Of a DNA stretch of 64,000 nucleotides, positions 2,767-31,981 are shown piece by piece; the stretch's first letter is position 1, and each line of letters starts with the position of its first letter. The stretch comes from Candidatus Norongarragalinales archaeon (GTDB lineage: Archaea; Micrarchaeota; Micrarchaeia; Norongarragalinales; Norongarragalinaceae): contig JAWABJ010000001.1 of the NCBI GenBank assembly GCA_038884755.1, positions 153,792-217,791 of the forward strand, in the 5' to 3' direction. The position numbers and the translations under genes were made by a program. The notes beneath the pieces were generated by a model, which ran no database searches, was not told the origin of the DNA, and was given only the letters and a program-made list of their open reading frames with translations.

Positions 2767-4233
2767 ATGTTCAAGCAAGTTTCAAGCGCGTTTTTGAAGG
2801 AAAACACTATCGTAGACCAGCACATCGAGTCTTTCAACAACTTTGTCGAGAAAACGATGCAGGACATTGTCGACGCCCAGCGCGTTATCGAGCCGCAAGT
2901 CGAGGGGCTGAGCGTGAAGCTGGGCAAAATCCGCGCGGAAAAGCCCATGGTCGTGGAAGGAGACGGGTCGAGGAGGCCGTTGTACCCGCTCGAAGCGCGG
3001 CTGCGCGATTTGAACTATTCCGCGCCTTTGTTTTTGGAAATGACGCAAGTCGTAAAGGGAATAGAAAAGAGGACTGAAGACGTTTACGTGGGCGAGCTGC
3101 CCGTGATGCTCAAATCGAGGCTATGCTACCTGCACGGGCGCAACGCGAAGGAACTGCAGCAGATTGGCGAGGACTCGCAGGATGCGGGCGGCTATTTCGT
3201 GATAAACGGAACGGAAAAGACGCTGATGATTCTCGAGGATTTGGCGCCGAACCGCATTCTCGTTTCGAGGGAAAAGGAAACGGGTTTGGTTCAGGCGAAG
3301 ATTTTCTCGACGCGCTCCGGTTTCAGGGGGCGTTGCACGGTCGACAGGACGAAGGAAGGGCTGTTGGGCGTGACCATGCCTTCTTACAACAAGCCTTTGG
3401 AACTCGTGCTTTTGCTTAGGGCCTTGGGGCTCGTCGATTCCGAAAGGATTGTGGACGCGTTTTCTTCCGCTACCGAAGTGAAGAACGACATCCAGCTCAA
3501 CCTCGAGGACAGCGTTGAAATAAAGAGCAAGCGCGATGCGCTGGAAACGATCGGAAAGCGCGCCGCTCCCGGCCAGCCCGTCGACTATCAAATAAAGAGG
3601 GCCGAAGTTTTGATAGACCGTTATTTGCTGCCGCACATCGGCATTGAAGAGAAAAACCGCCTGGCGAAGGCTTTCTTCTTGTGCAGGATGGCCGAGCGCG
3701 CCATACTTGTTGCTTACAAAAAGCGTCCGGTTGACGACAAGGACCATTATTCCAACAAGCGTTTGAAGACTCCCGGAAAATTGATGGAGGAAGTGTTCCG
3801 CTACGCGTTCCAGTTTCTCGTGAAAGACGTTGCGTACCAAATGGAACGCGCTAACGTTCGAGGGCGCAGGATGACTATGTTTGCCATAGTGCGTCCGGAC
3901 GCGTTGAGCGACAGGATAAAATATTCGATGGCAACTGGCAACTGGGTGGGCGGCTATACAGGCGTGTCGCAGCCTTTGGACCGTTATAATTTCATTTCAG
4001 CCGCGGCTTTCTTGAAGAGAGTGACTTCGCCTTTGGCTAAAAAACATCCGCACTACAAGGCGCGCGACTTGCACGGCACGCACTGGGGGCGATTGGACCC
4101 GAACGAGACTCCTGAAGGCCCGAACTGCGGCTTGGTGCGCAACTTGTCCTTGTATTCGGAAATAACTGTTGGTGCGAAGACAGAGGAAGTGGAGAAAGTT
4201 TTGAGCAAGCTGGGAGTTTCGATGAACGTTTAA
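2767..4233 (+). CDS. rpoB2: DNA-directed RNA polymerase subunit B'' (N-terminal half of split RpoB)
   Basis: 488 aa, collinear with the N-terminal half of Rpb2/RpoB. It ends 10 nt before the B' start. Confidence 0.95.
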   Translation: MFKQVSSAFLKENTIVDQHIESFNNFVEKTMQDIVDAQRVIEPQVEGLSVKLGKIRAEKPMVVEGDGSRRPLYPLEARLRDLNYSAPLFLEMTQVVKGIEKRTEDVYVGELPVMLKSRLCYLHGRNAKELQQIGEDSQDAGGYFVINGTEKTLMILEDLAPNRILVSREKETGLVQAKIFSTRSGFRGRCTVDRTKEGLLGVTMPSYNKPLELVLLLRALGLVDSERIVDAFSSATEVKNDIQLNLEDSVEIKSKRDALETIGKRAAPGQPVDYQIKRAEVLIDRYLLPHIGIEEKNRLAKAFFLCRMAERAILVAYKKRPVDDKDHYSNKRLKTPGKLMEEVFRYAFQFLVKDVAYQMERANVRGRRMTMFAIVRPDALSDRIKYSMATGNWVGGYTGVSQPLDRYNFISAAAFLKRVTSPLAKKHPHYKARDLHGTHWGRLDPNETPEGPNCGLVRNLSLYSEITVGAKTEEVEKVLSKLGVSMNV

Positions 4234-4242
4234 GGTGGAAAC

Positions 4243-6054
4243 ATGAAGCACGCTGGGGTTTTTGTCGACGGGAAGTTCGTGGGTTTCGCCGAGAACGGCG
4301 AGAAGCTCGCAAGGGAATTGCGGGAAATGCGCAGGGCCGGCGACGTGCACTCGCAAATCAACATCGCTTTTTATGCGAAAACCAACGAGGTTTTCATAAA
4401 CACCGACGAGGGCCGCGTGCGAAGGCCTTTGATCGTGGTGAAAAACGGAAAGCCGTTGCTTTCGAAAGAGCAGGCTGACAAGCTCGAGAAAGGCGAATTG
4501 CATTGGAAGAACCTGGTGGAACAGGGGCTGATCGAGTTTTTGGATGCTGAAGAGGAGGAGAACGCTTTCGTGGCGCTTAAGCCGGAAGACGTCACGCCCG
4601 ACCACACGCACTTGGAAATAGACCATTCTATGATTCTCGGCTTCGCTTCTTCGCAGCTTCCGTATCCCGAGTACAACATGGCGCCCAGGGTTTTGATGTC
4701 GGCGCAGCACGCGAAGCAGAGCTTGGGCCTTTATGCTTCCAACTTCAATTTGCGAAGCGATACGCGCGCGCACGTTTTGTTCTACCCGCAACAGCCGTTG
4801 CTGCAAACCAGCGCGTACCGCAACTTGCGCTTGAACAAGCGGGCTTCAGGCCAAAACCTCGTGGTCGCCGTCCTTTCCTACAAGGGCTTCAACATGAACG
4901 ACGCGGTGGTGTTGAACAAGACGAGCGTCGAGCGAGGCATAGGGCGCAGTGCTTTCATACGCACTTACGGCGCCGTCGAAAGGCGTTATCCAGGCGGGCA
5001 GAAGGATTCGTTCGGGATTCCCGAAGAGTACGTGCAGGGTTTCCTCGGGGAAGAGGCTTACGCTCATTTGGACGAAGACGGCTTTGCAGCGCCTGAAACT
5101 GTGGTCAAAGGCAACGCCGTTCTGGTTGGAAAGTCTTCGCCGCCCAGGTTTTTGAAGGAAATTTCGGCTTTGGAAATGGAGAGCGAACGCAGGCGGGAGT
5201 CGAGCGTAACCGTGCGGGGCAACGAAGAAGGCACTGTTGATGCGGTTATTCTGAGCGAAACGACTTCCGGGAACAAGATGGTCAAGATTCGCGTGCGCAA
5301 CACCAACATTCCTGAAGTGGGAGACAAGTTCGCTTCGCGCCACGGGCAAAAAGGCGTTGTTTCCATCCTCGTTCCGCAGGAAGACATGCCTGCCACGAAA
5401 GACGGGATTACTCCCGACTTGATAATCAACCCGCACGCAATTCCCGGCAGAATGACCGCCGGGCATTTGCTTGAAATGCTCGGGGGCAAGGCGAGCGCGT
5501 TGAAGGGAAGCATAGGTGACGCGACTGCGTTTTCCGGAGATAAGCAGGCGGATTTCGAGAAAGTCTTGCTGCAAAACGGTTTCGAGGCTGCGGGGCAGGA
5601 AGTGCTTTACGACGGCAAGACCGGCGAACGCCTGTACGCAAAGATTTTCATGGGAGTAATTTACTACCAACGCTTGCACCATCTGGTTTCCCTCAAGATG
5701 CACGCTCGCTCGCGCGGGCCGGTGCAAATGCTCACCCACCAGCCGACCGAAGGCCGCGCTCGCGAGGGCGGATTGCGTTTGGGTGAAATGGAAAGGGATT
5801 GTTTCATTGGTTACGGTGCAGCGTCGCTTTTGAAGGAAAGGATGATGGACTCGAGTGACAAGACTGTGGAGTTGGTGTGCGCGAATTGCGGTTCGCTGGC
5901 GTATACCGACAGGCAGAAGAACAAGAGCTATTGCGCGTTGTGCGAGAGCAGCGACATACAGCCTGTCGAAATGAGCTACGCGTTCAAGCTTTTGCTTGAT
6001 GAGATGAAGTCCATAGGAATATTTCCGAAACTGCGTCTTGGAGACCGGGCTTAA
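4243..6054 (+). CDS. rpoB1: DNA-directed RNA polymerase subunit B' (C-terminal half of split RpoB)
   Basis: 603 aa. It contains the conserved GDKFASRHGQKG and QPTEGRAREGGLRLGEMERDC motifs and a C-terminal Zn ribbon CANCG...CALC. Confidence 0.95.
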   Translation: MKHAGVFVDGKFVGFAENGEKLARELREMRRAGDVHSQINIAFYAKTNEVFINTDEGRVRRPLIVVKNGKPLLSKEQADKLEKGELHWKNLVEQGLIEFLDAEEEENAFVALKPEDVTPDHTHLEIDHSMILGFASSQLPYPEYNMAPRVLMSAQHAKQSLGLYASNFNLRSDTRAHVLFYPQQPLLQTSAYRNLRLNKRASGQNLVVAVLSYKGFNMNDAVVLNKTSVERGIGRSAFIRTYGAVERRYPGGQKDSFGIPEEYVQGFLGEEAYAHLDEDGFAAPETVVKGNAVLVGKSSPPRFLKEISALEMESERRRESSVTVRGNEEGTVDAVILSETTSGNKMVKIRVRNTNIPEVGDKFASRHGQKGVVSILVPQEDMPATKDGITPDLIINPHAIPGRMTAGHLLEMLGGKASALKGSIGDATAFSGDKQADFEKVLLQNGFEAAGQEVLYDGKTGERLYAKIFMGVIYYQRLHHLVSLKMHARSRGPVQMLTHQPTEGRAREGGLRLGEMERDCFIGYGAASLLKERMMDSSDKTVELVCANCGSLAYTDRQKNKSYCALCESSDIQPVEMSYAFKLLLDEMKSIGIFPKLRLGDRA

Positions 6055-6064
6055 GGGTGGAAAA

Positions 6065-9000
6065 ATGAAGGTCGTAAAAGCAATTGGTTTTTCGATATAC
6101 TCGCCTGAGAACGTGCGTAAGATGAGCGCCGCGAAAATCACCGTTCCAGACACTTACGACGAGGACGGCTACCCCATCAGCGGGGGCCTGGCAGACCAGC
6201 GCTTGGGCGTTGTAGACCCCGGCTTGAAGTGCCGCACGTGCGGAGGAAGGATGAAAGACTGTCCCGGGCACTCGGGGCACATCGAGCTCGTGAGGCCGGT
6301 GATTCACGTCGGTTTCGCAAAGCTCATTTACAATTTGCTGAAAGCCACTTGCAGGAAATGCGGAAGGCTCATGCACTACGCTTCGCGCGTCGAGGAAGCC
6401 AAAAAATCGCTGGAATGCCCGCATTGTGGCGAGAAGCAGAGGAAAGTCAAGTTCGTAAAGCCCAGCGCTTTTTACGAGGAAGACCGCAAGCTCTTTCCCA
6501 ACGAAATCAGAGAGCGTTTGGAGCACATTCCTGACGATGACTTGCGCACGTTGGGCGTTGCAATTCGCCCCGAGTGGGCAGTGCTCACCGTTTTGATAGT
6601 CCCTCCAGTCACAGTCCGCCCTTCTATCACTCTCGAAACTGGGGAAAGGAGCGAGGACGATTTGACGCACAAGCTCGTGGACATTCTTCGAATCAACCAG
6701 CGTTTGGAAGAGAATATCGACGCGGGCGCGCCGCAGCTTATAATAGAAGACTTGTGGGAATTGCTGCAATACCACGTTACCACTTACTACGACAACGAGA
6801 CTTCCGGAATTCCTCCTGCGCGACACCGTTCGGGGCGCCAGCTTAAGACTTTGTTCCAGCGTTTGAAGGGCAAGGAAGGGCGCTTTCGCTACAATCTCAG
6901 CGGAAAGAGGGTAAACTTTTCGGCCCGCACCGTGATTTCTCCCGACCCAACGCTGGGAATAAACGAGTTGGGCGTGCCGATGGAAATTGCGAGAGAGCTT
7001 ACCGTTCCGGTCAGCGTGACGCAATGGAATTTGGAGAACGTGAAGGAAATGATTCGCGCTCGCGCCGAGGCCATAAATTACGTAATCCGCCCAGACGGGA
7101 AGAGGAAGAAAATCACTACCGCCAACATAGAAGAGGTTTTGACCGAGCTTACGCCGGGCTATACTGTGGAAAGGCAGCTGTTCGACGGCGACGTAGTGAT
7201 ATTCAACAGGCAGCCTTCCCTCCACCGCGTTTCGATGTTGTGCCATGAAGTCAAGGTTTTGCCTGGAAAAACGTTCCGCTTTAACGTCGCAAATTGCAAC
7301 CCGTACAATGCCGACTTCGACGGAGATGAAATGAACATTCACGTTCCGCAGACTGAAGAGGCGCAGGCTGAAGCCGAACTGCTGATGAAAGTTCAGGATA
7401 ACATCCTCTCGCCGCGCAACGGCTCTCCGCTTATCGCGCCCGACTTGGACCAAATCACGGGATTGTATTTGCTTTCGCTCGACGATTTCGTTGTTACTAA
7501 AAAGGAAGCTTGCAATTTGCTTAACGCAGCTGGAGTGGATGGCGCGTTGGAAAAAAGCTTGGTGAGCGGCAAGGAAATTTATTCCATGATATTGCCTGAA
7601 AAGTTCGACTTGGAGCTTGAAGGCAAGGGTGGAAACAAAGTCCGCATAAAGAACGGGAAGCTCACCGAAGGGTTTTTGGACGCGCACGCCAACCGCACCG
7701 TCGTGAGACGAATTTTCGACGAGTTTGGGAGTGAGGAAGCTCGAAAGTACGTTGACAAGGCGACCAAGCTTTCGGTCGAGCTTGCATACCGCTACGGGTT
7801 TTCGCTGAGCTTGAAGGACTATTACTTGCCCGAATCGGCGATTGCGGAAATAACCAAGCTTTACGACGAGGGCAGGCAGCGGCTCGTAGAGCTCGTGAGG
7901 AAATACAAGACCAGGAAGCTTGAACGGCTTCCGGGAAAGACGCTCAAGGAAACTCTCGAAGAGCAGGTAATGAACATCGTCGAACTCATACGCTTCCACT
8001 GCTGGACTATAGTCAAGGAAAAAATTTCTAAAACCGCCGTAGAAATTAACGGCAGGCAGTTCGAGCACAATTCTTCCCTGCTCATGGCACAGGCCGGGGT
8101 GAAGAACAAGCCCATCAACGTCGTGCAGATGACCGCGCTGGTGGGACAGCAGGCCGTCCGCGGAAAGAGGCCCGCCGCAGGATTCAAGAAAAGGCTTTTG
8201 CCGCACTTCAGGCGTGGCGATTTGGGCGACGCGGCGCGCGGTTTCGTCAAAAACAATTACAAGAGCGGGTTGAATGCCGTCGAGTATTTCTTCCACGCTG
8301 CGGGAGGAAGGGACAGCGTGGTCGACAAGGGAGTTAACCCGGCAAAGACTGGTTACATGCAACGCCGTCTCATTAATGCATTACAGGATTTGATCGTAAA
8401 GGAAGACGCGAGCGTCAGGGACAGCGAAGGAAAAATAGTACAGTTCAAGTACGGCGGGGACGGAATCGACCCTTCGACTGGAAAGCAAATCGCTTACGGC
8501 GAGCCTGTCGGGGTTATCGAGGCGCAGAGCATCGGCGAGCCCGGAACTCAAATGACTTTGCGCACTTTCCACTATGCCGGCGTAGCTTCGCTGGCGCAAT
8601 TCGGCTTCACGCGTTTGGTAGAGTTGGTGGACGCCCGCAAATCGCCGAAAAAGCCGGTCATGGAAATTTGCCTGAAGAAAAGCATTGCAGGCGATTTCGA
8701 GAAAGTCAAGACGATAGCTGCCAGCATCGAAAGCGTGGTTTTGGAGGACGTTGCGGAAACCAAGGAGAATTTCGACCGGAAGGCGATTACCATAACCCTC
8801 AACCCATTGCTGCTCAAGGACAAGGGAATCCGCGAAAAGGCGATTTTGGACGAGATTGGTAAAATAACCCCCAACTTCAAGCACGAAGGACACGAGATTG
8901 TGATTAAAACGAAGGAAGAGTCCCTCAAGGCCGTACGTAAGTTGACTCTACGCTTCAAGGAATTGCATTTGGGCGGAGTCAAGGGAATAAGGAAAGCGAT

Positions 9001-9472
9001 TATCGTGGAAAAGAAGACCGAAGGCGGGAAGGAGTACACCATCGCAACCGAAGGCTCTAATCTCGAAGACATTCTCAAGCTGGAAGAAATAGACTCTCAC
9101 CGCACGAGCACGAACGACATCATGGAAATAGGGCGCGTTCTCGGGATAGAAGCGGCGCGAAACGCGATTATCCAGGAAATAAAGAAAGTGTTGGACACGC
9201 AGGACTTGACTGTCGACGAAAGGCACATAATGCTCATCGCCGACGCCATGACTTTCTTGGGCGGAGTGAAGAGCGTTGGAAGGCACGGGCTTGCAGGGCA
9301 AAAGAAAAGCGTGCTTGCGCGCGCGGCGTTCGAAGAGACCGCAAAGCATTTGCTGAACGCATGCATTTACGGAGAGGAAGACCCGCTGAAAGGCATAGCG
9401 GAAAACATCATCATCGGGCAAACAATCCCTGCTGGAACCGGCACAGTGCAACTGGAAATGAAGCTCGAGTGA
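6065..9472 (+). CDS. rpoA: DNA-directed RNA polymerase subunit A, unsplit (A' and A'' regions in one reading frame)
   Basis: About 1135 aa from MKVVKAIGFSIYSPENVRKMSA. N-terminal Zn motifs CRTCGG...CPGHSGH and catalytic NADFDGDEMN are present. Reading continues without a stop through the A'/A'' junction (...KYGGDGIDPSTGKQIAYGEPVGVIEAQSIGEPGTQMTLRTFHYAGV...) to the A''-type C-terminus IIGQTIPAGTGTVQLEMKLE. Confidence 0.9.
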   Translation: MKVVKAIGFSIYSPENVRKMSAAKITVPDTYDEDGYPISGGLADQRLGVVDPGLKCRTCGGRMKDCPGHSGHIELVRPVIHVGFAKLIYNLLKATCRKCGRLMHYASRVEEAKKSLECPHCGEKQRKVKFVKPSAFYEEDRKLFPNEIRERLEHIPDDDLRTLGVAIRPEWAVLTVLIVPPVTVRPSITLETGERSEDDLTHKLVDILRINQRLEENIDAGAPQLIIEDLWELLQYHVTTYYDNETSGIPPARHRSGRQLKTLFQRLKGKEGRFRYNLSGKRVNFSARTVISPDPTLGINELGVPMEIARELTVPVSVTQWNLENVKEMIRARAEAINYVIRPDGKRKKITTANIEEVLTELTPGYTVERQLFDGDVVIFNRQPSLHRVSMLCHEVKVLPGKTFRFNVANCNPYNADFDGDEMNIHVPQTEEAQAEAELLMKVQDNILSPRNGSPLIAPDLDQITGLYLLSLDDFVVTKKEACNLLNAAGVDGALEKSLVSGKEIYSMILPEKFDLELEGKGGNKVRIKNGKLTEGFLDAHANRTVVRRIFDEFGSEEARKYVDKATKLSVELAYRYGFSLSLKDYYLPESAIAEITKLYDEGRQRLVELVRKYKTRKLERLPGKTLKETLEEQVMNIVELIRFHCWTIVKEKISKTAVEINGRQFEHNSSLLMAQAGVKNKPINVVQMTALVGQQAVRGKRPAAGFKKRLLPHFRRGDLGDAARGFVKNNYKSGLNAVEYFFHAAGGRDSVVDKGVNPAKTGYMQRRLINALQDLIVKEDASVRDSEGKIVQFKYGGDGIDPSTGKQIAYGEPVGVIEAQSIGEPGTQMTLRTFHYAGVASLAQFGFTRLVELVDARKSPKKPVMEICLKKSIAGDFEKVKTIAASIESVVLEDVAETKENFDRKAITITLNPLLLKDKGIREKAILDEIGKITPNFKHEGHEIVIKTKEESLKAVRKLTLRFKELHLGGVKGIRKAIIVEKKTEGGKEYTIATEGSNLEDILKLEEIDSHRTSTNDIMEIGRVLGIEAARNAIIQEIKKVLDTQDLTVDERHIMLIADAMTFLGGVKSVGRHGLAGQKKSVLARAAFEETAKHLLNACIYGEEDPLKGIAENIIIGQTIPAGTGTVQLEMKLE

Positions 9473-9563: not shown

Positions 9564-9986
9564 ATGAACCTGTTTTCTTTTTTGGTTGCTTTCGTTTTGC
9601 TTGTTTCCGCTTCGCTGGTTTTCTCTTCGGATGGGGAAACGGGTGAAGCAGGGGTTACCCCTGTTCGGCTTCCGGATTACGTGGTCTGGCCTTTCAGGGC
9701 GGACAAGTTCGGAGACGGCGTAAGGGTTCAAGCCGTTACGCTCAACCACGGGCAAGGAGATGCGAAGCCGCACGAGAGTTCTTTCACGCGCATAATTGCA
9801 AACTCGAACGCAACGGATTTTCCAGTTACGCCTCTCAGGCGCGGGCAGCCTTCTAGTCTCCACGTCGTAGATTTCAAGTGCAAGAAAGGAAACAATGTTT
9901 TCATCACTGCGATAGCCGATTTCTACGGAAGCGTGGAAGAGTCGGACGAAACGAACAACGCCGTTTCCACGAGAGTAGTGTGCTGA
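9564..9986 (+). CDS. small secreted protein with CARDB-like domain
   Basis: 140 aa with a signal peptide MNLFSFLVAFVLLVSASLVFSS. The C-terminal ...GSVEESDETNNAVSTRVVC resembles the E-x-NE-x-NN end of CARDB domains. Confidence 0.5.
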   Translation: MNLFSFLVAFVLLVSASLVFSSDGETGEAGVTPVRLPDYVVWPFRADKFGDGVRVQAVTLNHGQGDAKPHESSFTRIIANSNATDFPVTPLRRGQPSSLHVVDFKCKKGNNVFITAIADFYGSVEESDETNNAVSTRVVC

Positions 9987-10110
9987 GATGCTTTTGCGCA
10001 ACGCGCCCGCGAGAATAGTTTCGTTTAAATACCGCTTGTTTTAATGTTATGAAACAGTTTTTTAGAGAGGAGGGGATGCGTAGATGGCTATGGCGGCGAA
10101 TTGCGTGTGC

Positions 10111-10269
10111 GGAATGCACGCGTGCGGAAAGTGTAGTCCAATGCTTTTGCTGTTCGGGATTTTGTTCCTTATAGCGAGCTTGGGAGTTTACACGGCTTCT
10201 TGGTTCAACGGCTGGACCATTCTCGGCGTGTTCTTCGTCCTTTGGGGCGGCATGTCGATGATGAAGTAA
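10111..10269 (+). CDS. small membrane protein (about 52 aa) with CxxC pairs, hypothetical
   Basis: MHACGKCSPMLLLFGILFLIASLGVYTASWFNGWTILGVFFVLWGGMSMMK. A strong hairpin terminator follows. Confidence 0.3.
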   Translation, partial: GMHACGKCSPMLLLFGILFLIASLGVYTASWFNGWTILGVFFVLWGGMSMMK

Positions 10270-10387: not shown

Positions 10388-10888
10388 GTGGTTTTTGCAG
10401 AAGCGTGGATTGAAATCGCTTTCGTTTCCCTGTTGTTTTCAATCGCGGCGTTCGCCGCGAACAAGACTCTCGGGCAGAGGGACAAGGTGAAGGAACTGCA
10501 GAAGGAAACACAGGCCTACCAGAAGGAAATGCAAAAGGCGGTTTTGGCCAAGGACGAGAAGAAGATCGAGGAGCTGCAAAAGCGGGAGAAGGAAGTCAAC
10601 GAGAAGATGATGCAGATGCTCATGCTGCCTTGGAAGGCGAGCATCGTCATGCTTCCGATAGCGTGGATTTTGATTTCGTTCGTCCTGCCTTTTTTTTACA
10701 AGGGCTTCGTCATACTCCTTCCTTTCGACATCCACTTGGGCGCCTTGCTTTCCTGGACTTTTTACACCAACGTTTTCCGCACTGCCGCTTACGGCACGAC
10801 CGGGTTTTTCATAGTATGCTCTATAGTGTTCGGGTTGCTTTTGGAAAAGTTCGGAAACATGGCGTGGCCCGCCAAAACTCAGCCTTAG
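10388..10888 (+). CDS. DUF106/EMC3/YidC-Oxa1-like membrane insertase homolog
   Basis: 166 aa. TM1 is followed by a K/E-rich coiled coil (KVKELQKETQAYQKEMQKAVLAKDEKKIEELQKREKEVNEKMMQM) and then two TMs. This architecture is typical of archaeal DUF106 proteins. Confidence 0.6.
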   Translation: MVFAEAWIEIAFVSLLFSIAAFAANKTLGQRDKVKELQKETQAYQKEMQKAVLAKDEKKIEELQKREKEVNEKMMQMLMLPWKASIVMLPIAWILISFVLPFFYKGFVILLPFDIHLGALLSWTFYTNVFRTAAYGTTGFFIVCSIVFGLLLEKFGNMAWPAKTQP

Positions 10889-10946: not shown

Positions 10947-11606
10947 ATGTTGAAAATACAGGCTGATTTCGCTTTGTTCATGGCATTCCTGGTTTTGGTG
11001 ATTCTGGGAATTTTCCTTCTCCTTCCTTCCGCTTTGGAGCGGCCCAAGCATTTCGCTTGCGTAAACCAGGCTTGCGTAGAGGTTGAAGGCGCAGGGCCTG
11101 ACTATTGTTCGGATTCGCAAGACTGCGCTCCAAAACCCACTGTTTTCGAATCTACAGTCCAGCCTTCGGTTCCGGCTGAATTCGAGGAAACGCCCCTCGC
11201 GAACCTCACGCGCGAGTGCGCTGAAAAGTTTTCCTACGCCTTTTCCAAAAACGACGTTTCGTCGTGCGTCATCGACGGCTGTCCGCTTTCCACCCACTAT
11301 TGCCAGGCTGCAGTGGCGGATTTCGAGTGCGTGGGCGTGGTGCAGGGCTCGGGAAACCAGTCGAAAAGGGACTTGTGCGAATTGAATTTCGCTATAAACA
11401 GCGGCGGCATCGAGCAGTGCGGTTACTTGCCCGAGCCCGCTAAGCAGTATTGCATTGCTTTGAAGGAAAAGAGCGTTGCGAAGTGCTCCGAGATTCCGAA
11501 CAAGTTTTTGAAAGACATTTGCCCCGGAGTGATAGGCGTGTTGACTAAAAACAAGCGGTTGTGCAGCGAAGATTACGCCGAGTGCTTCGCTTTAATAGGC
11601 GGATGA
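10947..11606 (+). CDS. secreted Cys-rich protein (219 aa), hypothetical
   Basis: N-terminal TM/signal FALFMAFLVLVILGIFLLL and about 20 Cys. It contains one copy of the motif CVNQACVEVEGAGPDYCSDSQDC, which is also repeated three times in the 14155 protein. Confidence 0.6.
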   Translation: MLKIQADFALFMAFLVLVILGIFLLLPSALERPKHFACVNQACVEVEGAGPDYCSDSQDCAPKPTVFESTVQPSVPAEFEETPLANLTRECAEKFSYAFSKNDVSSCVIDGCPLSTHYCQAAVADFECVGVVQGSGNQSKRDLCELNFAINSGGIEQCGYLPEPAKQYCIALKEKSVAKCSEIPNKFLKDICPGVIGVLTKNKRLCSEDYAECFALIGG

Positions 11607-11610
11607 AAAA

Positions 11611-13566
11611 ATGGTTTTGCGAGCGCACCAGAAGTTAAGCGTATTGTTTTTTTCCGTTCTAGCAATAGCTTTGCTTTTCACGGCGTTTTCCAACGAAAGT
11701 TCTTCCTACTCGGGACAGTCGCGTTCGCTTTCGTTCGAGAAAGCGAGTGCTTCCCCTGAAGGTTCTGCCAGCCCTTCTCCGAGCGGAGAGGCGAGCCCTA
11801 CTGGTGTTGCTTCGCCTTCCGCATCTGCTTCTCCGACTTGCTCTCCGCCTCCTGGCGGTTGTGGAAGCCGCTGTACGAGTTCTACCGAACGGGTGAGCAG
11901 GGTTTGGGACCAGAACGCTTGCGCTTGCGTTGACGACGGGCCTTTGCCGTCGTGCGCTTGCGGCAATGGGGCGGAGTGCAGCACGTGCTATTGCGAGGAC
12001 GTTACTTACAACGGCGTTCCTGCTGCAGTGTGCCGTTCTACTGGCGGTGATTGCGGAAACCCGTATTGCGCGAGCGGAAGCAGGAGCTGCCAGGACGTTT
12101 GCGGCGCGAACGGTTTTTGCGAGCCGAGGTGCAACAATTGCGCAGGACCAAACGGGTGGAATTGCTACGCGGAATCATGCAATTCTGGCACTGGTCGTTG
12201 CTCGCAGGATTGTTCTTTGACAGACGGCACTACCCCCGGATTATGCGGGACCGCCGGATTTCCCTGTTCTAAAAACAAGCGTTGCCAGAGTTGCGAGTGC
12301 GCTTGGGAGCCTTTGAACTGTTGTCCCGGCAACGCGCCGGCTTGCTTGGAGTGCGTTAATTTCTATCAATTCATACGCCATTACTGCAATCCCGTGACCG
12401 AGTCCTGCAGCCAGGACGGCCCGTATTCCTGCCCGCCGAGTTTTTGCGGTTCAGACCCGTGGTTCGGCTACGGGAACGCTTGCACTTACTGGGACTTTTT
12501 GGGTTGCACGCAAAGGGGTTTGGGCATAGCTTGCCCCTACTTTTCCAACTTGCAGCCCGACCCGCGTTGCGGGTCTCGGTGCGTGGGTGGTTCTCCCACT
12601 CCGACAGCTTCCCCTTCGCCTTCCAACACTCCTTCGCCTTCGGTTTCCCCGCCACCTTGCATTTACAATTGCATAAACGGTTTTTGTTCGAACGACCCGA
12701 ACCGTTCTTGCCAGTATAACGGCGATTTCAGGTGTTGCGTTGAAGTGAGCGCAAGCCCTTCTCCCTACGCTTCCCCTTCGCCTTCCAACACTCCTTCGCC
12801 TTCGGGCAGTCCTTCTCCCAGCGGCAGTCCGTCGCCTTCGCCTTCCAACACTCCTTCGCCTTCGGGCTCCGCCTCCCCGTCTAGCTCTCCTTCTGCAAGT
12901 CCTTCCGTTTCAGGCTCTCCTTCCGGCAGTCCTTCGCCTTCCGCCAGCGTGGGTGGTTCTCCCAGCCCTTCAAACGGAGGAGCCGGTTTTTGCGGCGACA
13001 GGATAATCCAGCCTCCTGAAGAGTGCGATACTGACGACGGCGTGTGCAAAATTCGCGGTCCGACTTACGCTTGCAGCGTGGCTTGCGAGTGTTTTGATGC
13101 GGAAGGGTTTTACGGCGGGATAGTGAAGCTTCCTGACGTGAAAATAGTGAGCGGAACGCAGGTTGAAAGCGCTGAACTCGCAGTGTTATACAACCACGCT
13201 TCAGACGGGTTGGGTGCAAGCGAAGGCGACATAGGCAATTTCTTTTCGATTTTGGTTGACGACAGGAATATAATTACGCAGTGCTTGGAGCAAGAGCCCG
13301 CTTGCCTGCGCTACGGCGGCGAACCAGGGGTTTTCGTTCTCACGCTTTCGCCGCAGTTGCTTGGCTTGCAGTCTCAAGAGCTTCCAGAAGGTTCTTACCG
13401 AATCAAGGCCATAGTGCGCGAAAACGGGGTTTTCTACGAGGCGAACGCGCCCAACGCGCTAATAGTGCAGAGGCAGGAAACCTCGCTGCCCGAAACCGAC
13501 TTTCTCGTCGTGTTGTTTTTCGCCTTGCTCGCGGCGTTCGCAATGCGCACTTCGCGGAAGCGATAG
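11611..13566 (+). CDS. large Cys-rich cell-surface protein with Ser/Pro linkers and an LPETD-TM-basic C-terminal sorting-signal-like tail
   Basis: 651 aa with a signal peptide and more than 60 Cys. S/P/T linkers (SPSPSNTPSPSGSPSPS...). A Myxococcus-type Cys repeat FCGDRIIQPPEECD. The C-terminus is ...RQETSLPETDFLVVLFFALLAAFAMRTSRKR. Confidence 0.7.
   Translation: MVLRAHQKLSVLFFSVLAIALLFTAFSNESSSYSGQSRSLSFEKASASPEGSASPSPSGEASPTGVASPSASASPTCSPPPGGCGSRCTSSTERVSRVWDQNACACVDDGPLPSCACGNGAECSTCYCEDVTYNGVPAAVCRSTGGDCGNPYCASGSRSCQDVCGANGFCEPRCNNCAGPNGWNCYAESCNSGTGRCSQDCSLTDGTTPGLCGTAGFPCSKNKRCQSCECAWEPLNCCPGNAPACLECVNFYQFIRHYCNPVTESCSQDGPYSCPPSFCGSDPWFGYGNACTYWDFLGCTQRGLGIACPYFSNLQPDPRCGSRCVGGSPTPTASPSPSNTPSPSVSPPPCIYNCINGFCSNDPNRSCQYNGDFRCCVEVSASPSPYASPSPSNTPSPSGSPSPSGSPSPSPSNTPSPSGSASPSSSPSASPSVSGSPSGSPSPSASVGGSPSPSNGGAGFCGDRIIQPPEECDTDDGVCKIRGPTYACSVACECFDAEGFYGGIVKLPDVKIVSGTQVESAELAVLYNHASDGLGASEGDIGNFFSILVDDRNIITQCLEQEPACLRYGGEPGVFVLTLSPQLLGLQSQELPEGSYRIKAIVRENGVFYEANAPNALIVQRQETSLPETDFLVVLFFALLAAFAMRTSRKR
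12742..12979 (+). repeat. low-complexity Ser-Pro-encoding repeat tract (linker) inside the 11611 gene
   Basis: Reiterated GCTTCCCCTTCGCCTTCC-like units encode (A/G)SPSPS(N/G)TPSPSGS. A shorter tract lies at 12595-12667. Confidence 0.7.
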
Positions 13567-13615
13567 CGCGCCGTTCAGATGTTTTAAAAAGCACTTTCGT
13601 CTGATTAATTGCGAG

Positions 13616-14170
13616 ATGGGCGCGGAGAAAATAATCCTTGTGGCGGCTTTGCTTTTCGTGGTTATCGCTTTGTTTGTCTGGCAGCCGTTCCGCCCGCCTT
13701 TACCTTCGCCAACGCCTTCGGTTTTGATTCCAACACCGACGGCTTCTATTCCTTCGCCAGTAGACTTGCAGGCTGAATGTAACAAGAAGCTTTCCGACGC
13801 AATACGCTTGTTCAGCCCTGGCGCGTGTGAACAGATTTCCTGCGAAGAGCAGAAGAATTACTGCTTGGGAGTGCTGGGGAAGGACGTGCAGGCTTGCGAA
13901 AAGCTTGAAACGCAAGATTACAAGGACGTTTGCTACGGCAACATGGCTTCGAAATTAAAGGCGAGGGAATTGTGCGACAGGATTGCGAACGGCGACAGGA
14001 AAAACTATTGCTTGTTGGGCTTCGACCCGAAGGAATCTTATTGTGATGCTATGGTTTTGCACTCGTTCAAGGACAATTGCTACCACCGGCTTGCGATAGT
14101 GTTGAAAGACGCTTCTTATTGCGAGAAGATAAGTAGTAATTCCACCAGGGCGCGTTGCGCTGGTCGATGA
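13616..14170 (+). CDS. membrane-anchored/secreted Cys-rich protein (184 aa), hypothetical
   Basis: N-terminal TM IILVAALLFVVIALFVW, then a PSPTPS linker, then repeated (K/R)NYC.../DVCYGN Cys motifs. Confidence 0.55.
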   Translation: MGAEKIILVAALLFVVIALFVWQPFRPPLPSPTPSVLIPTPTASIPSPVDLQAECNKKLSDAIRLFSPGACEQISCEEQKNYCLGVLGKDVQACEKLETQDYKDVCYGNMASKLKARELCDRIANGDRKNYCLLGFDPKESYCDAMVLHSFKDNCYHRLAIVLKDASYCEKISSNSTRARCAGR

Positions 14171-16026
14171 AAATGCGTTTTCTTGCTTTCGCCTTTGTTT
14201 TTGCCTTCGCGCTTTTTGCGCAGCAGGGCTTTTCCCAAGGCGTTCCCATGTGTCCTGGCAATGGAAACAATTTCGAGTGCCCGCCTTGCAACGAGCCTTG
14301 CTCGATTCCCGTCGGTCCGCCGGAGTGCTGCGCTTGGAACCCCAACGCAGGTCCCGAATGCCAAGGCGTTTTGCCCGCGTGCATGGTTTGCGCGGTTGCC
14401 ATTCAAGCCGCTCCTGCTTCCAACCTCAACTTTTGCACTTCCTCCGGCTACGAAGCTAAAGCTTTGGAGGGAGTTGTTCCCGCGCAACGCGCTTTGATTT
14501 CCTTGGCTGAAACTTGCCCTGATACTGTGACGACAGTCCCTTGCAACAACAAGTTTGGAGACTGCTGCTTGTGCGACGGCACGCTCATGACTTATCAAGG
14601 AGATGAGGAAACCCTCCGCTGCCTGCCGGGCACGTGCGAGCCTGGGGTGAGCGAATGCAATTTCGAAAACCAGGGTTTCAGGTGCGAGGCTGACGCCATT
14701 CCCAACGGCTGCACTCCAGACCCGAACGTTTGCGCTTCCCCTTCTCCATCACCTTCGCCCAGCCCCTCTCCAAGCCCTTCCCCCAGCGCTTCGCCCAGCC
14801 CTTCGGCTTCTGCCTCTCCAAGCCCCTCGCACACGATTTGCTCCTTGGGTTCGTGTATTGTCGTTCAAGGTCCTGGTCCGAATTATTGTTTTTCAAACTC
14901 CGATTGCGTTGAGCCGTCGCACACGATTTGCTGGCTAGGGCAATGCATTTCAATCCAAGGCCCAGGCCCGAACTATTGCAGTTCTAACGCGAATTGCGTT
15001 TCGCAATCGCACACCATATGCTCCAACCAGCAGTGCATTTCTGTTGTAGGCCCCGGCTCGAACCAGTGTTCTTCCAACAGCCAGTGCGGTTCGGCTTCGC
15101 CTTCCCCCAGCCCAGGCGGCTCTCCTTCCCCAAGCGGTTCTCCCACTCCCTCGGGCAGTCCTTCTCCTAGCGGCAGTCCCTCGCCTTCCGGTTCTCCTTC
15201 GCCTAGCGGAAGCCCGTCTCCAAGCGGTTCTCCTTCTCCCTCAGGGTCTCCCAGCCCTTCCGGCTCGCCCAGCCCCTCCGGTTCTCCTTCGCCTTCGGGC
15301 AGTCCTTCTCCCAGCGGAACTCCGTCGCCTTCGCCTTCCAATACGCCGTCCCCTTCGGGCTCCGCTTCGCCTTCGGGTTCTCCGAGCGGCAGCCCCAGTT
15401 CTTCCCCGTCTTCTTCACCCAGCTCGTCTCCAAGCGGTTCTCCAGGCGGAGGGTATTGCGGAAACGGGGTGATAGACCCGGGCGAGGTTTGCGACAAGGC
15501 CAACAACGCCGGATGCGCGCAAGGGGAATTCTGCAACTTCGACTGCAGCGCTTGCTTCTCGCCAGGTTCGCCTGAAGGAAGCATACTGCGCATCGAAGGA
15601 AAGCGCGTGATTGGCGGGGAGGAAATCCAGGCTGCGACAGTGCCGATTTTGTACAATACCGCGGCAACCGGGCTTGCCGCCCCTTGCAGCGAGCAGGTCA
15701 AGGGCAGTTTGTTGTTCACGATAGACGACGCGCGTTTGGGAAGCATTCCCGAGGCGTTGTCTTGCGACTCTTCAAAACCCGGGGTTTTCATTCTCACGCT
15801 TTCGCCGCAGTTGCTGGGATTGCAGTCGCAAGAGCTTCCTTCCGGAAGCTACCGCGTGAAAGTAGAGGTTGACGAGGGAGGGACGGTTTACAGCGCGAAC
15901 GACCCGCAGGCTTTGATTGTAGTAAAACAAAAGCAGGCTTTGCCTGAAACGGATTTCCTCGTCGTATTGTTCTTCGGCTTGCTTGCCTTGCTTTTCGTGC
16001 GCAGCGGCACGCGCCGCAACGAGTAA
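14155..16026 (+). CDS. large Cys-rich cell-surface protein, paralog of 11611..13566, with an LPETD-TM-basic C-terminal tail
   Basis: 623 aa with a signal peptide. It has three tandem HTIC-x-LG-x-C-I-x-[VI]-x-GPGPNYC-x-SN-x-x-C modules and long (GSPSPS)n linkers. A YCGNGVIDPGEVCD repeat is present. The C-terminal module is near-identical to the 11611 protein, ending ...KQKQALPETDFLVVLFFGLLALLFVRSGTRRNE. Confidence 0.7.
   Translation: MRWSMKMRFLAFAFVFAFALFAQQGFSQGVPMCPGNGNNFECPPCNEPCSIPVGPPECCAWNPNAGPECQGVLPACMVCAVAIQAAPASNLNFCTSSGYEAKALEGVVPAQRALISLAETCPDTVTTVPCNNKFGDCCLCDGTLMTYQGDEETLRCLPGTCEPGVSECNFENQGFRCEADAIPNGCTPDPNVCASPSPSPSPSPSPSPSPSASPSPSASASPSPSHTICSLGSCIVVQGPGPNYCFSNSDCVEPSHTICWLGQCISIQGPGPNYCSSNANCVSQSHTICSNQQCISVVGPGSNQCSSNSQCGSASPSPSPGGSPSPSGSPTPSGSPSPSGSPSPSGSPSPSGSPSPSGSPSPSGSPSPSGSPSPSGSPSPSGSPSPSGTPSPSPSNTPSPSGSASPSGSPSGSPSSSPSSSPSSSPSGSPGGGYCGNGVIDPGEVCDKANNAGCAQGEFCNFDCSACFSPGSPEGSILRIEGKRVIGGEEIQAATVPILYNTAATGLAAPCSEQVKGSLLFTIDDARLGSIPEALSCDSSKPGVFILTLSPQLLGLQSQELPSGSYRVKVEVDEGGTVYSANDPQALIVVKQKQALPETDFLVVLFFGLLALLFVRSGTRRNE
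15085..15450 (+). repeat. tandem 18-nt repeat array (GGTTCTCCTTCGCCTAGC-like), about 18 units, encoding (GSPSPS)n
   Basis: The period-18 unit is visible directly in the nucleotides at 15120-15310. Each copy differs by synonymous or near-synonymous changes. Confidence 0.8.
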
Positions 16027-16599: not shown

Positions 16600-17544
16600 T
16601 TATTTTTCTGTTTCCCCCACGTCTAGAATGAGTGCCGTGAGCAAAAGCTGCACGCCTACGATTGAAGGCAGTAGGCAAAGCAAAACGCTTCCCACGCTTG
16701 GCGAAAGCGAATGGAATGCTTTTTGCCACAAAATCCACACTCCCGTTGCCAAGCCTATTGAAAACAGTGCTATTCCGAACGAGAAGAACAGGGCGATGGG
16801 GTGGAAGTCGCGCAAGACGTACTTCTCGAAAATCCTTTTGAAAAAGCTTTTGACCAGGAAGAGAGAGGCGGAAGGCACGAAACTGCGGAGTTTTATTCCG
16901 CTTTTTTCGCTTCCGTAGCTTGCCGGAATGGCGACGTCTTTCACCCGCAAGTTGGCTATGTTGAGCTTCACGAGCATGTCGTTTTCGAAGCAGTATCCCT
17001 TGTTCAAAGAATCCAAGTCTATTTCCTTGAGCGCTGAAGAGCGGATTGCCGTGAACCCGTTTTGCGGGTCGAAAATGTGCCAGTATCCGCTAGCCGCTTT
17101 AGTGAGGAAAGTGAGCAGCACGTTTCCCAAAATGCGTATGACCGGCATGCCTTCCAGCGAGCTTTTAGCCAAAAACCTGTTTCCCTTGGCGTAATCGTAC
17201 CCTTCCAGCAAAGCGTCGAGAAGCTTGCGCGCGTGTTCGGGTTGCATTTGCCCGTCCCCCGCCATTACCACCGAAAAATCGGCGCCCAGTTCCAAAGCTT
17301 TCCTGTGCCCCGTGACAATCGCCCCGCCCACTCCCTGGTTTTTCTCGTGCTTTATGACGAAAACCTTTTTGTTCAACTGCTTTCCGGCCGCCTTTCTTGC
17401 CGCATCAAAAGTTCCATCTTTGCTTGCGTCGTCCACCACGACAATCCAATCCACGTATTTAGGAGCGGTTTTCACCACGTTTCCTACGAACCTGCTTTCA
17501 TTAAACGCGGGAATTACTACGCAAACCTTGTTTTTCTTGTACAT
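16600..17544 (-). CDS. GT2-family dolichyl-phosphate sugar synthase (DPM1/AglK-like)
   Basis: 314 aa beginning VCVVIPAFNESRFVGNVVKT...VVVDDASKDGT...NQGVGGA, a GT-A fold with DxD. C-terminal TM helices follow. The start lies 8 nt after the stop of the upstream GT-C-like gene. Confidence 0.85.
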   Translation of the reverse strand: MYKKNKVCVVIPAFNESRFVGNVVKTAPKYVDWIVVVDDASKDGTFDAARKAAGKQLNKKVFVIKHEKNQGVGGAIVTGHRKALELGADFSVVMAGDGQMQPEHARKLLDALLEGYDYAKGNRFLAKSSLEGMPVIRILGNVLLTFLTKAASGYWHIFDPQNGFTAIRSSALKEIDLDSLNKGYCFENDMLVKLNIANLRVKDVAIPASYGSEKSGIKLRSFVPSASLFLVKSFFKRIFEKYVLRDFHPIALFFSFGIALFSIGLATGVWILWQKAFHSLSPSVGSVLLCLLPSIVGVQLLLTALILDVGETEK

Positions 17545-17551
17545 TTTTTTT

Positions 17552-19489
17552 TCACTTCCGCTTGACTTCGTAAATTTCGTAGTCTAAGTCGTTTATTGTT
17601 TTTTTGTATATTAACTTGAAAAGCGGGGAGGCGCGTATCGCGGTTTCGTTCAGCCCTTTGAACCTGCGTTCGTTGCTGGGAATGAGTGAAACGTGCGTTA
17701 TGCCGTATTTCCTTATGACTTCGTCCATTCTTTTTCCCGAGTAGAAGTCGTATTGGTTTGTCGCCCGTTCGTACCAATCGCTTCTTCCCTTGACCCACCC
17801 TACCGCGGGAAACCCGAGCATTCTTACCCTGCCTACGAGGTCGAAAGCGTGAGGGCCGTCGAAAGCGATGACGACCGCGTCAGGCGGGAGGATTGCATTC
17901 GCGTCTTTCGCGAATTCTATGTCGGCGCGTCCGTAGAGCGAAAGCTGGTTCCAAGCGTCCTTCTGGATTGAAAGGGCGCCCGGGAGTATTGCCGCTGCCA
18001 GAATAACAACCGCTGCCGCAGGCGGAATGAAGTTTAGCAAAGCCGTTTCGTTTTTTTTTCCTTTGCGCACTGGAAACCGGAATTCGAAAAGCCGTGCGAG
18101 GGCGATTGCCCCCAAAGCAAAAGTAGGAATTTGCCACAGGTTGACGAGCTTCATGTTGTTCATGTAGTCGGGCGAAAAGCGGAACATGCTGAACGCAAGG
18201 AAAAGCGGAACGAACGCAACGTAATACTTGCGCACGGTTTTTGGGGAAGTGAAAAACGCGCTTAGCGCGAGCAGCAGGGGAAGCCCCATGTTTTGCACCC
18301 AAAACCACGCTATGTCGACGGGGTTTTGCGAAAGCGCCCTCCACCCTATTTCCAACGCCACGTAACTGTTGGAAGTGGAGGGCTCGAGCCACGCGTACGT
18401 TTGCACCGCGCCCAAAACCAAGGCGGGCGCGAAAAACCACGCCCATTTCCTGCTCCTGTAAATCACGAACAGTGCGCCTGCGGTCAGCACGCACGCTATG
18501 AACGCGGCTTCACGCATTAGCGGAAGAAAGCCCGCGAGTACCCCGCTCGCGAAAAGCATTTTGTTCAACCGCTTTTGTTGCCTTTCGGGAGTTTTCGCGG
18601 TCTCGAACTGCCTGGCTATTTCGAAAAGCATTATGAACACGACTACCGCGACGGTATACCCGAAGTTGCTTGCCCTCTGCCTCGCCAAGTGCGATTTGAA
18701 AAACTGGATTATGTGGCCCACCCACGGGTTTTCTATCAGCGCGGCGTAATCCCTGTCCGGATTTTCAAGCCACTCGCCTACGCTCGCGTGCTTTTGCGCG
18801 TCTTCAAGCATCATTCCGTAAGACATGCTGCCGGAGAAAAAGAGGAACAAGACGGCGACGATTGCCGCGTTTTTGCTTGAACCCAAGCGAAACGCGAGGA
18901 AGTAGACGCACGCGAAAAACGCGATTATCATTATCAGTGCCGGGACTGCGAACGCGAGAGTGAAAGGCATTTCAAGCCTTTCCAGCACTCCCGAGTACAA
19001 GTCTATCAAGAACGGGTAGTTGAGCGGAACGCCTGCGTACTGCGGGTCTTGCGGAGGCACTATGTGATTGTATGCAAAGTATTTCTCGATGTTGACGTGG
19101 TAGTACGTGTCCTGCCAGAACAACGCGCTCACTTCGTAATTCAAGCTCTTGTTCACGTGCACTGCGCCGTACGAAAACAAGACTATTATAAGGAGTATTA
19201 CGGGCGCCATTCTCAGCCAAAACCCGGAGTCCCACCCTTTTTCGAAAGCGCGCCCTCCCCCTCCCCGCAGCAACGCGACCGCAGCCATTGCAAGAGCAGC
19301 AAGCGCGGCGTAGTGCGCTTGCGCGCCGAAAGCGAAAAAAGAGGCGTAAGCCACGACCGAAGCGAGCGGCAGGCCTATCGCAATCGAAAAGAAGATTTGC
19401 TCTTCGCGAGTTTTCGCAAGCCCGATTTTCTTTTCTACTGCAAACCCGAAGAGTATAGAGAACAGGATAAAAAGAATGCCGAGAATCAT
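17552..19489 (-). CDS. large polytopic membrane protein, GT-C-like glycosyltransferase candidate (paralog A)
   Basis: 645 aa with about 13 TM helices and a roughly 120-aa C-terminal soluble domain. It is a paralog of 35793..37670 (for example LFASGVLAGFLPLMREAAF...RSRKW versus LFAAGVLAGLLPLAHAHS...SVRKW). It is co-oriented with the Dol-P-sugar synthase. Confidence 0.55.
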   Translation of the reverse strand: MILGILFILFSILFGFAVEKKIGLAKTREEQIFFSIAIGLPLASVVAYASFFAFGAQAHYAALAALAMAAVALLRGGGGRAFEKGWDSGFWLRMAPVILLIIVLFSYGAVHVNKSLNYEVSALFWQDTYYHVNIEKYFAYNHIVPPQDPQYAGVPLNYPFLIDLYSGVLERLEMPFTLAFAVPALIMIIAFFACVYFLAFRLGSSKNAAIVAVLFLFFSGSMSYGMMLEDAQKHASVGEWLENPDRDYAALIENPWVGHIIQFFKSHLARQRASNFGYTVAVVVFIMLFEIARQFETAKTPERQQKRLNKMLFASGVLAGFLPLMREAAFIACVLTAGALFVIYRSRKWAWFFAPALVLGAVQTYAWLEPSTSNSYVALEIGWRALSQNPVDIAWFWVQNMGLPLLLALSAFFTSPKTVRKYYVAFVPLFLAFSMFRFSPDYMNNMKLVNLWQIPTFALGAIALARLFEFRFPVRKGKKNETALLNFIPPAAAVVILAAAILPGALSIQKDAWNQLSLYGRADIEFAKDANAILPPDAVVIAFDGPHAFDLVGRVRMLGFPAVGWVKGRSDWYERATNQYDFYSGKRMDEVIRKYGITHVSLIPSNERRFKGLNETAIRASPLFKLIYKKTINDLDYEIYEVKRK

Positions 19490-31580: not shown

Positions 31581-31633
31581 AAACCGAAAACCGTTTTAAA
31601 TGCGCGCGCAGTAAGATTTTCAAGGGTTGTTTG

Positions 31634-31981
31634 ATGATAATAAGCAGGCAGGTTCTTTTGGTCATCGCCTTAGCCATGCTGGCAGTTTCGCTCGTGTTCT
31701 TAACTTGGGTTTTGCAACTCCCGTCCTATGCGCCGCAGGCTGTGGGGTACGTTCCTCCTGCCGTGGGTATAGTTTCGGTGGAAGTCGTGGCTACCGCAAC
31801 GCCTTCGGCTACTGCAGACCCCGCGGTCGTGGACTTTTGCTCTTCCTATCCGAAAGACTTGCAGCAAGCTTGCGTTGACGGAATAACCGCCGGAGGGGGA
31901 AGAATTCCCGAAAGCTCGCAAGACTGCGAGCTCGTTCCAGAAGAACTGCGCGAAGAGTGCATGCGGAATTTCGCGGGCTAG
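31634..31981 (+). CDS. small membrane-anchored protein, hypothetical
   Basis: MIISRQVLLVIALAMLAVSLVFLTWVLQLPSYAPQAVGYVPPAVG, then a Cys-containing C-terminal part. It has weak similarity to the next small ORF. Confidence 0.35.
   Translation: MIISRQVLLVIALAMLAVSLVFLTWVLQLPSYAPQAVGYVPPAVGIVSVEVVATATPSATADPAVVDFCSSYPKDLQQACVDGITAGGGRIPESSQDCELVPEELREECMRNFAG

Follow-up and report, generated by a model that had tools for sequence, protein, structure and literature searches.

Here we report a C-terminal protein cassette found in a 64,000-nucleotide stretch (hereafter, the window) of the genome of Candidatus Norongarragalinales archaeon, a member of the Micrarchaeota (contig JAWABJ010000001.1, positions 153,792 to 217,791), where it ends two large cysteine (Cys)-rich proteins that are encoded in a four-gene island. 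The cassette combines a Cys knot, an immunoglobulin (Ig)-like “pedestal,” and a short tail that carries the motif PETD. The data firmly support it as a lineage-specific C-terminal anchoring cassette, which, given its predicted topology, would display varied passengers on the Micrarchaeota cell surface. At about even confidence, we favor the reading that cassette and tail form a lineage-specific, permanently retained type-I anchor. A processed sorting signal is the foremost of the alternatives that we weigh below.

Two gene pairs with a common C-terminal cassette

The island (positions 10947-16026 of the window) contains four co-oriented open reading frames (ORFs) on the plus strand, which we refer to as S1, A, S2, and B (Table 1). 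By gene content, the window is archaeal, with a split RpoB, RpoA, PolD, and ribosomal protein genes. As a first-pass annotation of this DNA had proposed, each of the four ORFs opens with a hydrophobic segment and is rich in Cys (7.3% in S1, 8.3% in A, 6.5% in S2, and 6.6% in B, versus ~0-2.5% in most ORFs of the window), protein A containing 54 Cys in total. The Ser/Pro linkers and the CGDR/CGNG...E(E/V)CD motif that it had described are also present in the large proteins, the linkers making up 26-32% of A and B. Only 4 nt separate the stop of S1 from the start of A, and the ATG at 14167, which is probably the true start of B (giving a protein of 619 amino acids), overlaps the TGA of S2 as ATGA. 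The two small proteins, S1 and S2, are distantly paralogous (22% identity, E = 3e-6). The island is thus made up of two tandem small-plus-large gene pairs, which we read as a tandem duplication of a two-gene unit.

The long frames proved to be open from signal peptide to tail in six related metagenome contigs (L001, L003, L007, L013, L019, and L020), despite many differences in linker length. Full-length orthologues of A occur in L003 and L013, while those of B and S2 in L007 are 68% (over the full length) and 67% identical, respectively. The gene order is kept as well: in L001, L006, L007, and L011, a small protein, A, a small protein, B, cytidylate kinase, an AglJ-like GT2 glycosyltransferase, and a polytopic protein of ~645 amino acids follow one another. 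Because these frames are open and syntenic in related contigs, we regard the long ORFs as genes. Public gene calls (NCBI, ENA, JGI) for the family consist of C-terminal fragments of 136-205 amino acids only, for example, QXR53_01050 (MEM4254903.1), which begins at an internal GTG and is identical to the last 185 amino acids of B. Antisense ORFs have been called publicly within the GC-rich DNA of the Ser/Pro linkers, and we judged these to be spurious. Since the public calls reduce the genes to their last 136-205 amino acids, the proteins of this family are invisible in standard annotation.

Homology between A and B is confined to the C-terminal region (46% identity over 244 amino acids, E = 1e-29), where the same elements follow each other in the same order: a CGxG...GExCD knot, an Ig-like β-sandwich, a short charged linker, LPETD, 15 uncharged residues, and a basic end. 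From PGVF to the C-terminus, 54 of 80 residues (~67%) are identical, such that the module is indeed shared, as the first-pass annotation had it, while its description as near-identical was overstated. Different codons are used at 27 of these 54 identical residues, the tail included. With half of the identical residues differing in codon, the likeness must have been kept by selection on the protein, and recent gene conversion as a source of the identity between the tails is ruled out.

The tripartite tail turned out to be real and strongly conserved, with a hydrophobic part of 15 residues rather than the ~17 estimated initially. In all 15 distinct sequences that we collected, the motif reads [LV]PE[TS]D (one member has VPETD), and its D is followed by exactly 15 uncharged residues before the first basic or polar one. 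The C-terminal end beyond this hydrophobic core spans 6-12 residues with a net charge of +2 to +6. Nothing in the family is more strongly conserved than the motif and the 15-residue spacing: in a 12-member alignment, in which identity to A falls to 26-33%, three of the seven invariant columns are the P, E, and D of the motif, and the residues of the helix themselves vary in the wider family.

In the predicted fold, the module upstream of the tail forms a two-sheet sandwich with significant structural matches to Ig-like domains. An AlphaFold2 model of 196 amino acids that included the Cys knot, built from a 7-sequence alignment, reached a predicted local distance difference test (pLDDT) score of 42 and was discarded. 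The module, the N-terminal Cys-rich regions, and the small proteins are without relatives in sequence searches of Pfam, NCBIfam, and PDB. The single CG[ND][GR]...GE.CD motif that precedes the Ig-like module resembles the Myxococcus-type cysteine-rich repeat TIGR02232 (CGNG..GE.CD); unlike the arrays of that repeat, it is present in a single copy, and one of 12 members gave a weak match (E = 0.19). A second Cys-containing element, set between Ser/Pro linkers, is a unit of ~27-30 amino acids with four Cys (HTIC-x4-C-x6-GPG-x-N-x-C-x6-C), which we found in B and S1 and also in L001, L003, and L007. It yielded no significant match in Pfam, with EGF2_RECK (E = 0.014) as the sole match.

Distribution of the cassette and its passengers

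The cassette is rare. Among 5.8 billion proteins, the 196-amino-acid C-terminus of A was found in six clusters only. A scan of 185,579 species genomes returned two loci, both from Micrarchaeota, and a scan of JGI metagenomes returned 11 loci. Altogether, the cassette occurs in ~15 distinct sequences; those with a named source come from Micrarchaeota without exception, and most of the others from metagenome contigs without an assigned lineage. We then asked for the tail by itself, as the first-pass annotation had suggested, using a 35-position tail-only profile against all 1.84 billion representative proteins without a word filter. At E <= 0.001, this exhaustive search retrieved eight proteins, all of them members of the family and all eight with the same module upstream (...ILYN..TGLA...PGVF...ELP.G.Y...A.IV.K.K.ALPETD); among these representatives, no tail was found apart from the Ig-like module.

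What precedes the module differs from one carrier to the next. The passengers are Cys-rich mucin-like proteins in the window and its close relatives, other ectodomains without long Ser/Pro linkers in L008, L021, and L023, and, in L022, a protein of >1,109 amino acids with a HepB/heparinase-like domain (NCBIfam, E = 4e-26). The shortest form, QXR53_02510 (MEM4255177.1; P0011; 171 amino acids), is made up of a signal peptide, PSPSP, the Ig-like module, and a VPETD tail only. It is encoded on the same contig as the island, beyond the window, which brings the genome to at least three carriers at two loci. The first-pass annotation had held that a lack of further tail-bearing proteins in the genome, together with a lack of a sortase-like peptidase, would speak against a dedicated signal, and QXR53_02510 answers the first half of this. 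All carriers, the three in this genome and those with varied passengers in others, have the same Ig-like module directly upstream of the tail. As judged from these sequences, the tail behaves like a component of a single domain family rather than an independent sorting tag.

The gene that follows each tail-bearing one in distant lineages encodes a secreted, unanchored protein with the N-terminus ...LNVQGR(I/L)L..G..V.SG.V... and no family match (Table 1), which may be a partner that the anchored protein presents. Small proteins with an N-terminal anchor and repeats of the type C.GLP.ELK.ECL make up a second family, which is encoded at the tail-gene locus in distant Micrarchaeota (L008, 3130-3576; L021, 2050-2544) and ~16 kb downstream of the island in the window (31574-31981, plus strand).

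A retained anchor weighed against a processed tail

In the reading that we favor, the small protein of each unit would be held by its N-terminal membrane anchor, and the large cell-surface protein, tightly coupled behind it, would be exported via its N-terminal signal peptide. Long, probably glycosylated Ser/Pro stalks would bear disulfide-rich heads, possibly with an adhesin-like role, and the protein would be attached to the cell through its C-terminal cassette, with the Ig-like module serving as the pedestal. The tail would act as a stop-transfer sequence and stay on the protein as a type-I membrane anchor. The helix would be capped by PETD at the outer face of the membrane and held by the Arg/Lys cluster at the cytoplasmic face. 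On this view, the constraint on motif and spacing would come from a fixed register in which the pedestal sits on the membrane, or from docking to a partner, and not from cleavage. We prefer this retained anchor because the tail is inseparable from the Ig-like module, the copy number is low (three per genome), no enzyme was found in the scanned DNA and no report describes one in DPANN, and the protein is built like an ordinary receptor.

The scan for a processing enzyme covered the polytopic and unassigned ORFs of the 64-kb window, among which we found no sortase (PF04203), exosortase (Exosortase_EpsH), archaeosortase, rhomboid, or CPBP protein. These ORFs encode an MFS transporter, a TerC/DUF475 protein, a Na/H exchanger, an EMC3/YidC-like insertase, the GT2, three proteins with weak, sub-threshold GT-C-like matches (Dpy19, PMT_2), and two unassigned proteins that offer no catalytic-Cys candidate. 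No enzyme candidate emerged either among the neighbor genes that we read in L001, L003, L006-L009, L011, L013, L014, and L018-L023, a selection of which was compared with Pfam and NCBIfam. Our literature search returned nothing that links sortases or archaeosortases to Micrarchaeota or DPANN, and nothing relevant on LPETD as a sorting motif, on VPEID-CTERM, or on PGF/PEF-CTERM in DPANN. Published descriptions of archaeosortases are confined to some Euryarchaeota, whose genomes encode between 1 and 52 substrates each (PMC6098224).

Several observations weigh against a tail that is simply retained. The hydrophobic core measures just 15 residues in all 15 sequences, versus 22 and 20 residues in the two plain anchors of the window (ORFs 43184 and 54794), which the first-pass annotation had correctly described as lacking the motif. 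The P, E, and D and the spacing remain invariant although the domain has drifted to 26-33% identity and the residues of the transmembrane (TM) segment vary. In the predicted structure, the motif lies within a low-confidence, apparently exposed linker (pLDDT ~59). An in silico VPEPD variant of the tail, two substitutions away from LPETD, scored 18.8 bits on the Pfam PEP-CTERM model, versus a cut-off of 20.7. By analogy, the combination of a conserved motif, a TM segment of fixed length and variable sequence, a basic extreme C-terminus, and varied passengers is the look of processed sorting signals. Lastly, the scan for an enzyme covered 64 kb of a contig of 714,187 bp.

These points bear most directly on a possible, though less probable, explanation, namely that the tail is a new sorting signal in the style of exosortases and archaeosortases, a “PETD-CTERM” of DPANN (Micrarchaeota), whose enzyme would be either a very divergent relative of archaeosortase or a non-homologous one. 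On this tentative view, a membrane-embedded transpeptidase would, after Sec export, read [LV]PE[TS]D at the outer face and remove the 15-residue helix together with the basic end. The outcome, which we likewise consider conceivable but doubtful, would be the attachment to lipid or envelope of a few surface proteins, among them adhesins for host contact and a glycan lyase. The three-part layout of the extreme C-terminus, where the hydrophobic segment directly adjoins the motif, speaks for such a signal, as do the invariance of PE.D and of the 15-residue spacing from D to R while the helix drifts, and a core that is shorter than the plain anchors of the window. So does the range of unrelated passengers, from the HepB-like lyase to a form with no passenger at all, and the presence of three carriers at two loci in one genome. 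A low number of substrates has a precedent in some ArtA genomes, which contain a single one (PMC6098224). What counts against a PETD-CTERM signal is that no enzyme candidate was found in the 64 kb or in the short related contigs that were read, that the tail never occurs without the Ig-like module, that archaeosortases are not reported from DPANN in the literature searched, and that the native tail matches no model of the PEP, PGF, PEF, or VPDSG type.

The last point rests on comparisons of 12 family members with the Pfam and NCBIfam models for LPXTG, PEP-CTERM, PGF-CTERM, PEF-CTERM, VPXXXP-CTERM, and similar signals, in which no native tail gave a match at E <= 10, bearing in mind that the HMMER filters discard very weak matches; the sole sorting-model entry was VPDSG-CTERM, for one of the 12 members, at E = 1. 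The claim that the tail stands outside the named classes of sorting signals was thus borne out. Among the in silico variants, VPEPD covered the whole 24-position PEP-CTERM model and also hit three weak PEP-CTERM protein models, while neither VPEID and LPGFD nor an LPETG variant gave a match, the latter as compared to the LPXTG-anchor models (Pfam Gram_pos_anchor, NCBIfam). Of the two grammars that had been offered initially, sortase or exosortase/archaeosortase, these variants place the tail closer to PEP-CTERM and not with LPXTG. Judged by sequence, its geometry, with a motif that abuts a helix of ~15 residues and an Arg after the helix, is that of exosortase/archaeosortase signals, not of sortase signals.

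PEP-CTERM, PGF-CTERM, and PEF-CTERM (Haft et al. 2006, 2012, per PMC6098224) are likewise tripartite tails at the extreme C-terminus. In common with these, the PETD tail has a Pro-Glu-containing motif that abuts a hydrophobic helix of ~15 residues, followed by an Arg/Lys cluster, a motif that is better kept than the helix, and varied passenger domains. It differs from them in its motif, which is [LV]PE[TS]D and not PEP, PGF, or PEF, and in that the native sequence has no model match, that one particular Ig-like module always precedes it, and that a genome contains only ~three carriers. The host, moreover, belongs to DPANN, where such systems have not been described, and no exosortase or archaeosortase was found in the 64-kb window. 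TM-anchored stalk proteins of archaeal envelopes, such as SlaB of Sulfolobales (PMC6098224), and type-I Ig-domain receptors show no sequence relationship to the cassette. Unlike such stalks and ordinary Ig receptors, the PETD family combines an invariant juxtamembrane motif with a fixed, short hydrophobic length across divergent members. We found neither the family nor its tail in Pfam, NCBIfam, PDB, or the literature searched; as to type, they are another tripartite C-terminal tail or membrane anchor.

A further explanation, which we consider improbable, also retains the anchor, and has the motif and the fixed helix serve either in pairing with the N-terminal TM segment of the adjacent small protein or in regulated shedding by a general protease. 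In its favor are the strict pairing of small and large genes, where the 4-nt gap and the ATGA overlap indicate translational coupling, and the persistence of this pairing in relatives; distant lineages have a different small TM-plus-Cys protein at the locus, with an unanchored secreted protein between the small and the tail-bearing protein. Against it, the small-protein families change between lineages while the tail motif stays constant, and QXR53_02510 sits at another locus.

Gram-positive surface proteins often have an Ig-like domain before their LPXTG signal, and LPETG is the sorting motif of Staphylococcus aureus protein A. That the PETD tail is a sortase substrate of this type, with Asp in place of Gly at P1', cut after Thr and linked to an envelope polymer, appears very unlikely: LPETD shares four of five motif residues with LPETG and likewise precedes a hydrophobic segment and a basic end, but the Asp is invariant where Gly never occurs, the Glu at X is invariant (15 of 15), one member has VPETD, there is no polar spacer between motif and hydrophobic segment, even the LPETG variant failed to match an LPXTG-anchor model, the window contains no sortase domain, and we know of no murein or pseudomurein acceptor in Micrarchaeota. 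The study of A_DKE reports no cell-wall polymer synthesis, and for ‘Ca. Micrarchaeum harzensis’ the mode of anchoring of the surface layer (S-layer) is stated explicitly to be unknown (10.1101/2021.04.28.441871).

Genomic surroundings and meaning for DPANN surfaces

The positions of the island features, of the genes behind them, and of the secreted neighbors in distant lineages are collected in Table 1.

Table 1. Features of the island, of its downstream neighbors, and of related contigs (window positions unless a contig is named).
Feature	Position	Strand	Description	Basis
S1	10947..11606	+	219 amino acids; N-terminal TM/signal anchor (residues 8-26); Cys-rich domain with 16 Cys
S1 HFAC...C unit	11049-11126	+	4 Cys, one copy	Sequence
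Protein A	11611..13566	+	651 amino acids; signal peptide, Cys-dense N-terminal region, Ser/Pro linkers, C-terminal cassette
Ser/Pro linkers of A	12589-12669 and 12742-12978	+		Sequence
A knot	12988..13095	+	FCGDR...EECD...CECF; first cassette element	Family alignments
A Ig-like module	13114..13485	+	β-sandwich plus charged linker QRQETS	Sequence/predicted fold
A tail	13486..13563	+	LPETD 13486-13500; FLVVLFFALLAAFAM 13501-13545, 15 uncharged residues; RTSRKR 13546-13563
S2	13616..14170	+	184 amino acids; N-terminal TM, Pro-rich linker, Cys-rich domain with 12 Cys
Protein B	14155..16026	+	623 amino acids from TTG; signal peptide, Cys-rich N-terminal region, Ser/Pro linkers, cassette
Ser/Pro linkers of B	14710-14844 and 15070-15462	+		Sequence
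HTIC 4-Cys repeats of B	14830-14910, 14920-15000, 15010-15090	+	Three copies	Sequence
B cassette before tail	15454..15939	+	Knot, module, linker	Alignment
B knot	15454-15558	+	YCGNG...EVCD...CSACF	Alignment
B Ig-like module plus linker	15574-15939	+		Alignment
B tail	15940..16023	+	LPETD 15940-15954; FLVVLFFGLLALLFV 15955-15999; RSGTRRNE 16000-16023
AglJ-like GT2	16600-17544	-	C-terminal TM helices	Pfam/NCBIfam
Polytopic membrane protein	17552-19489	-	645 amino acids; itself without glycosyltransferase match
Secreted unanchored neighbors of tail proteins, distant lineages	L021 944-2071 and 4017-4679; L023 1303-3183; L008 1289-3109

Downstream of the island, the AglJ-like GT2 and the polytopic protein may, to go by their synteny, form a glycosylation pair for the Ser/Pro linkers that uses a lipid-linked sugar. 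A paralogue of the polytopic protein (35793-37670, plus strand) and the ORF at 37619-38698 (minus strand) show weak GT-C-like matches (Dpy19, PMT_2).

Directly upstream of the island lies a gene for an EMC3/TMCO1-like (YidC/DUF106-type) membrane insertase (10388-10888, plus strand). We considered it as a functionally linked insertase and rejected this; the synteny does not extend to L003, so the gene is probably a housekeeping neighbor. Two further plus-strand ORFs precede it: a 140-amino-acid secreted protein with a CARDB domain (9564-9986; Pfam, E = 1.4e-8) and a 61-amino-acid membrane ORF with a CxCxxxxCxxC start (10084-10269), both of which are unrelated to the cassette by hhalign. A relationship of the Ig-like module to CARDB was likewise rejected, at an hhalign probability of 0.1% and with no Pfam CARDB match on the large proteins.

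Elsewhere in the window, two more Cys-rich secreted proteins without a Pfam family are encoded on the plus strand, one of 475 amino acids (54794-56221; 5.1% Cys) with a plain TM anchor and a 32-residue cytoplasmic tail, and one of 1183 amino acids (60120-63671; 4.6% Cys) without an anchor. RpoB is split into two genes (2767-4233 and 4243-6054, plus strand). Archaeal RpoA is usually split; here, RpoA (6038-9472, plus strand) is a single ORF of 1144 amino acids with Rpb1 domains 1-5 in frame, A' and A'' being unsplit, which may be a trait of the lineage.

DPANN archaea live attached to other cells, and, to our knowledge, almost nothing is known of how their surface proteins are built and anchored. 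The Ig-like pedestal and the PETD tail together provide a compact signature for putative surface-displayed proteins of one Micrarchaeota lineage, which marks Cys-rich mucin-like proteins as well as a heparinase-like enzyme. If the tail is not processed, it is still an unusually constrained membrane anchor that merits a family model. If it is processed, sortase-like sorting would extend to DPANN and a missing enzyme would be implied, and the finding of a matching enzyme would establish the first sortase-like sorting system in DPANN.

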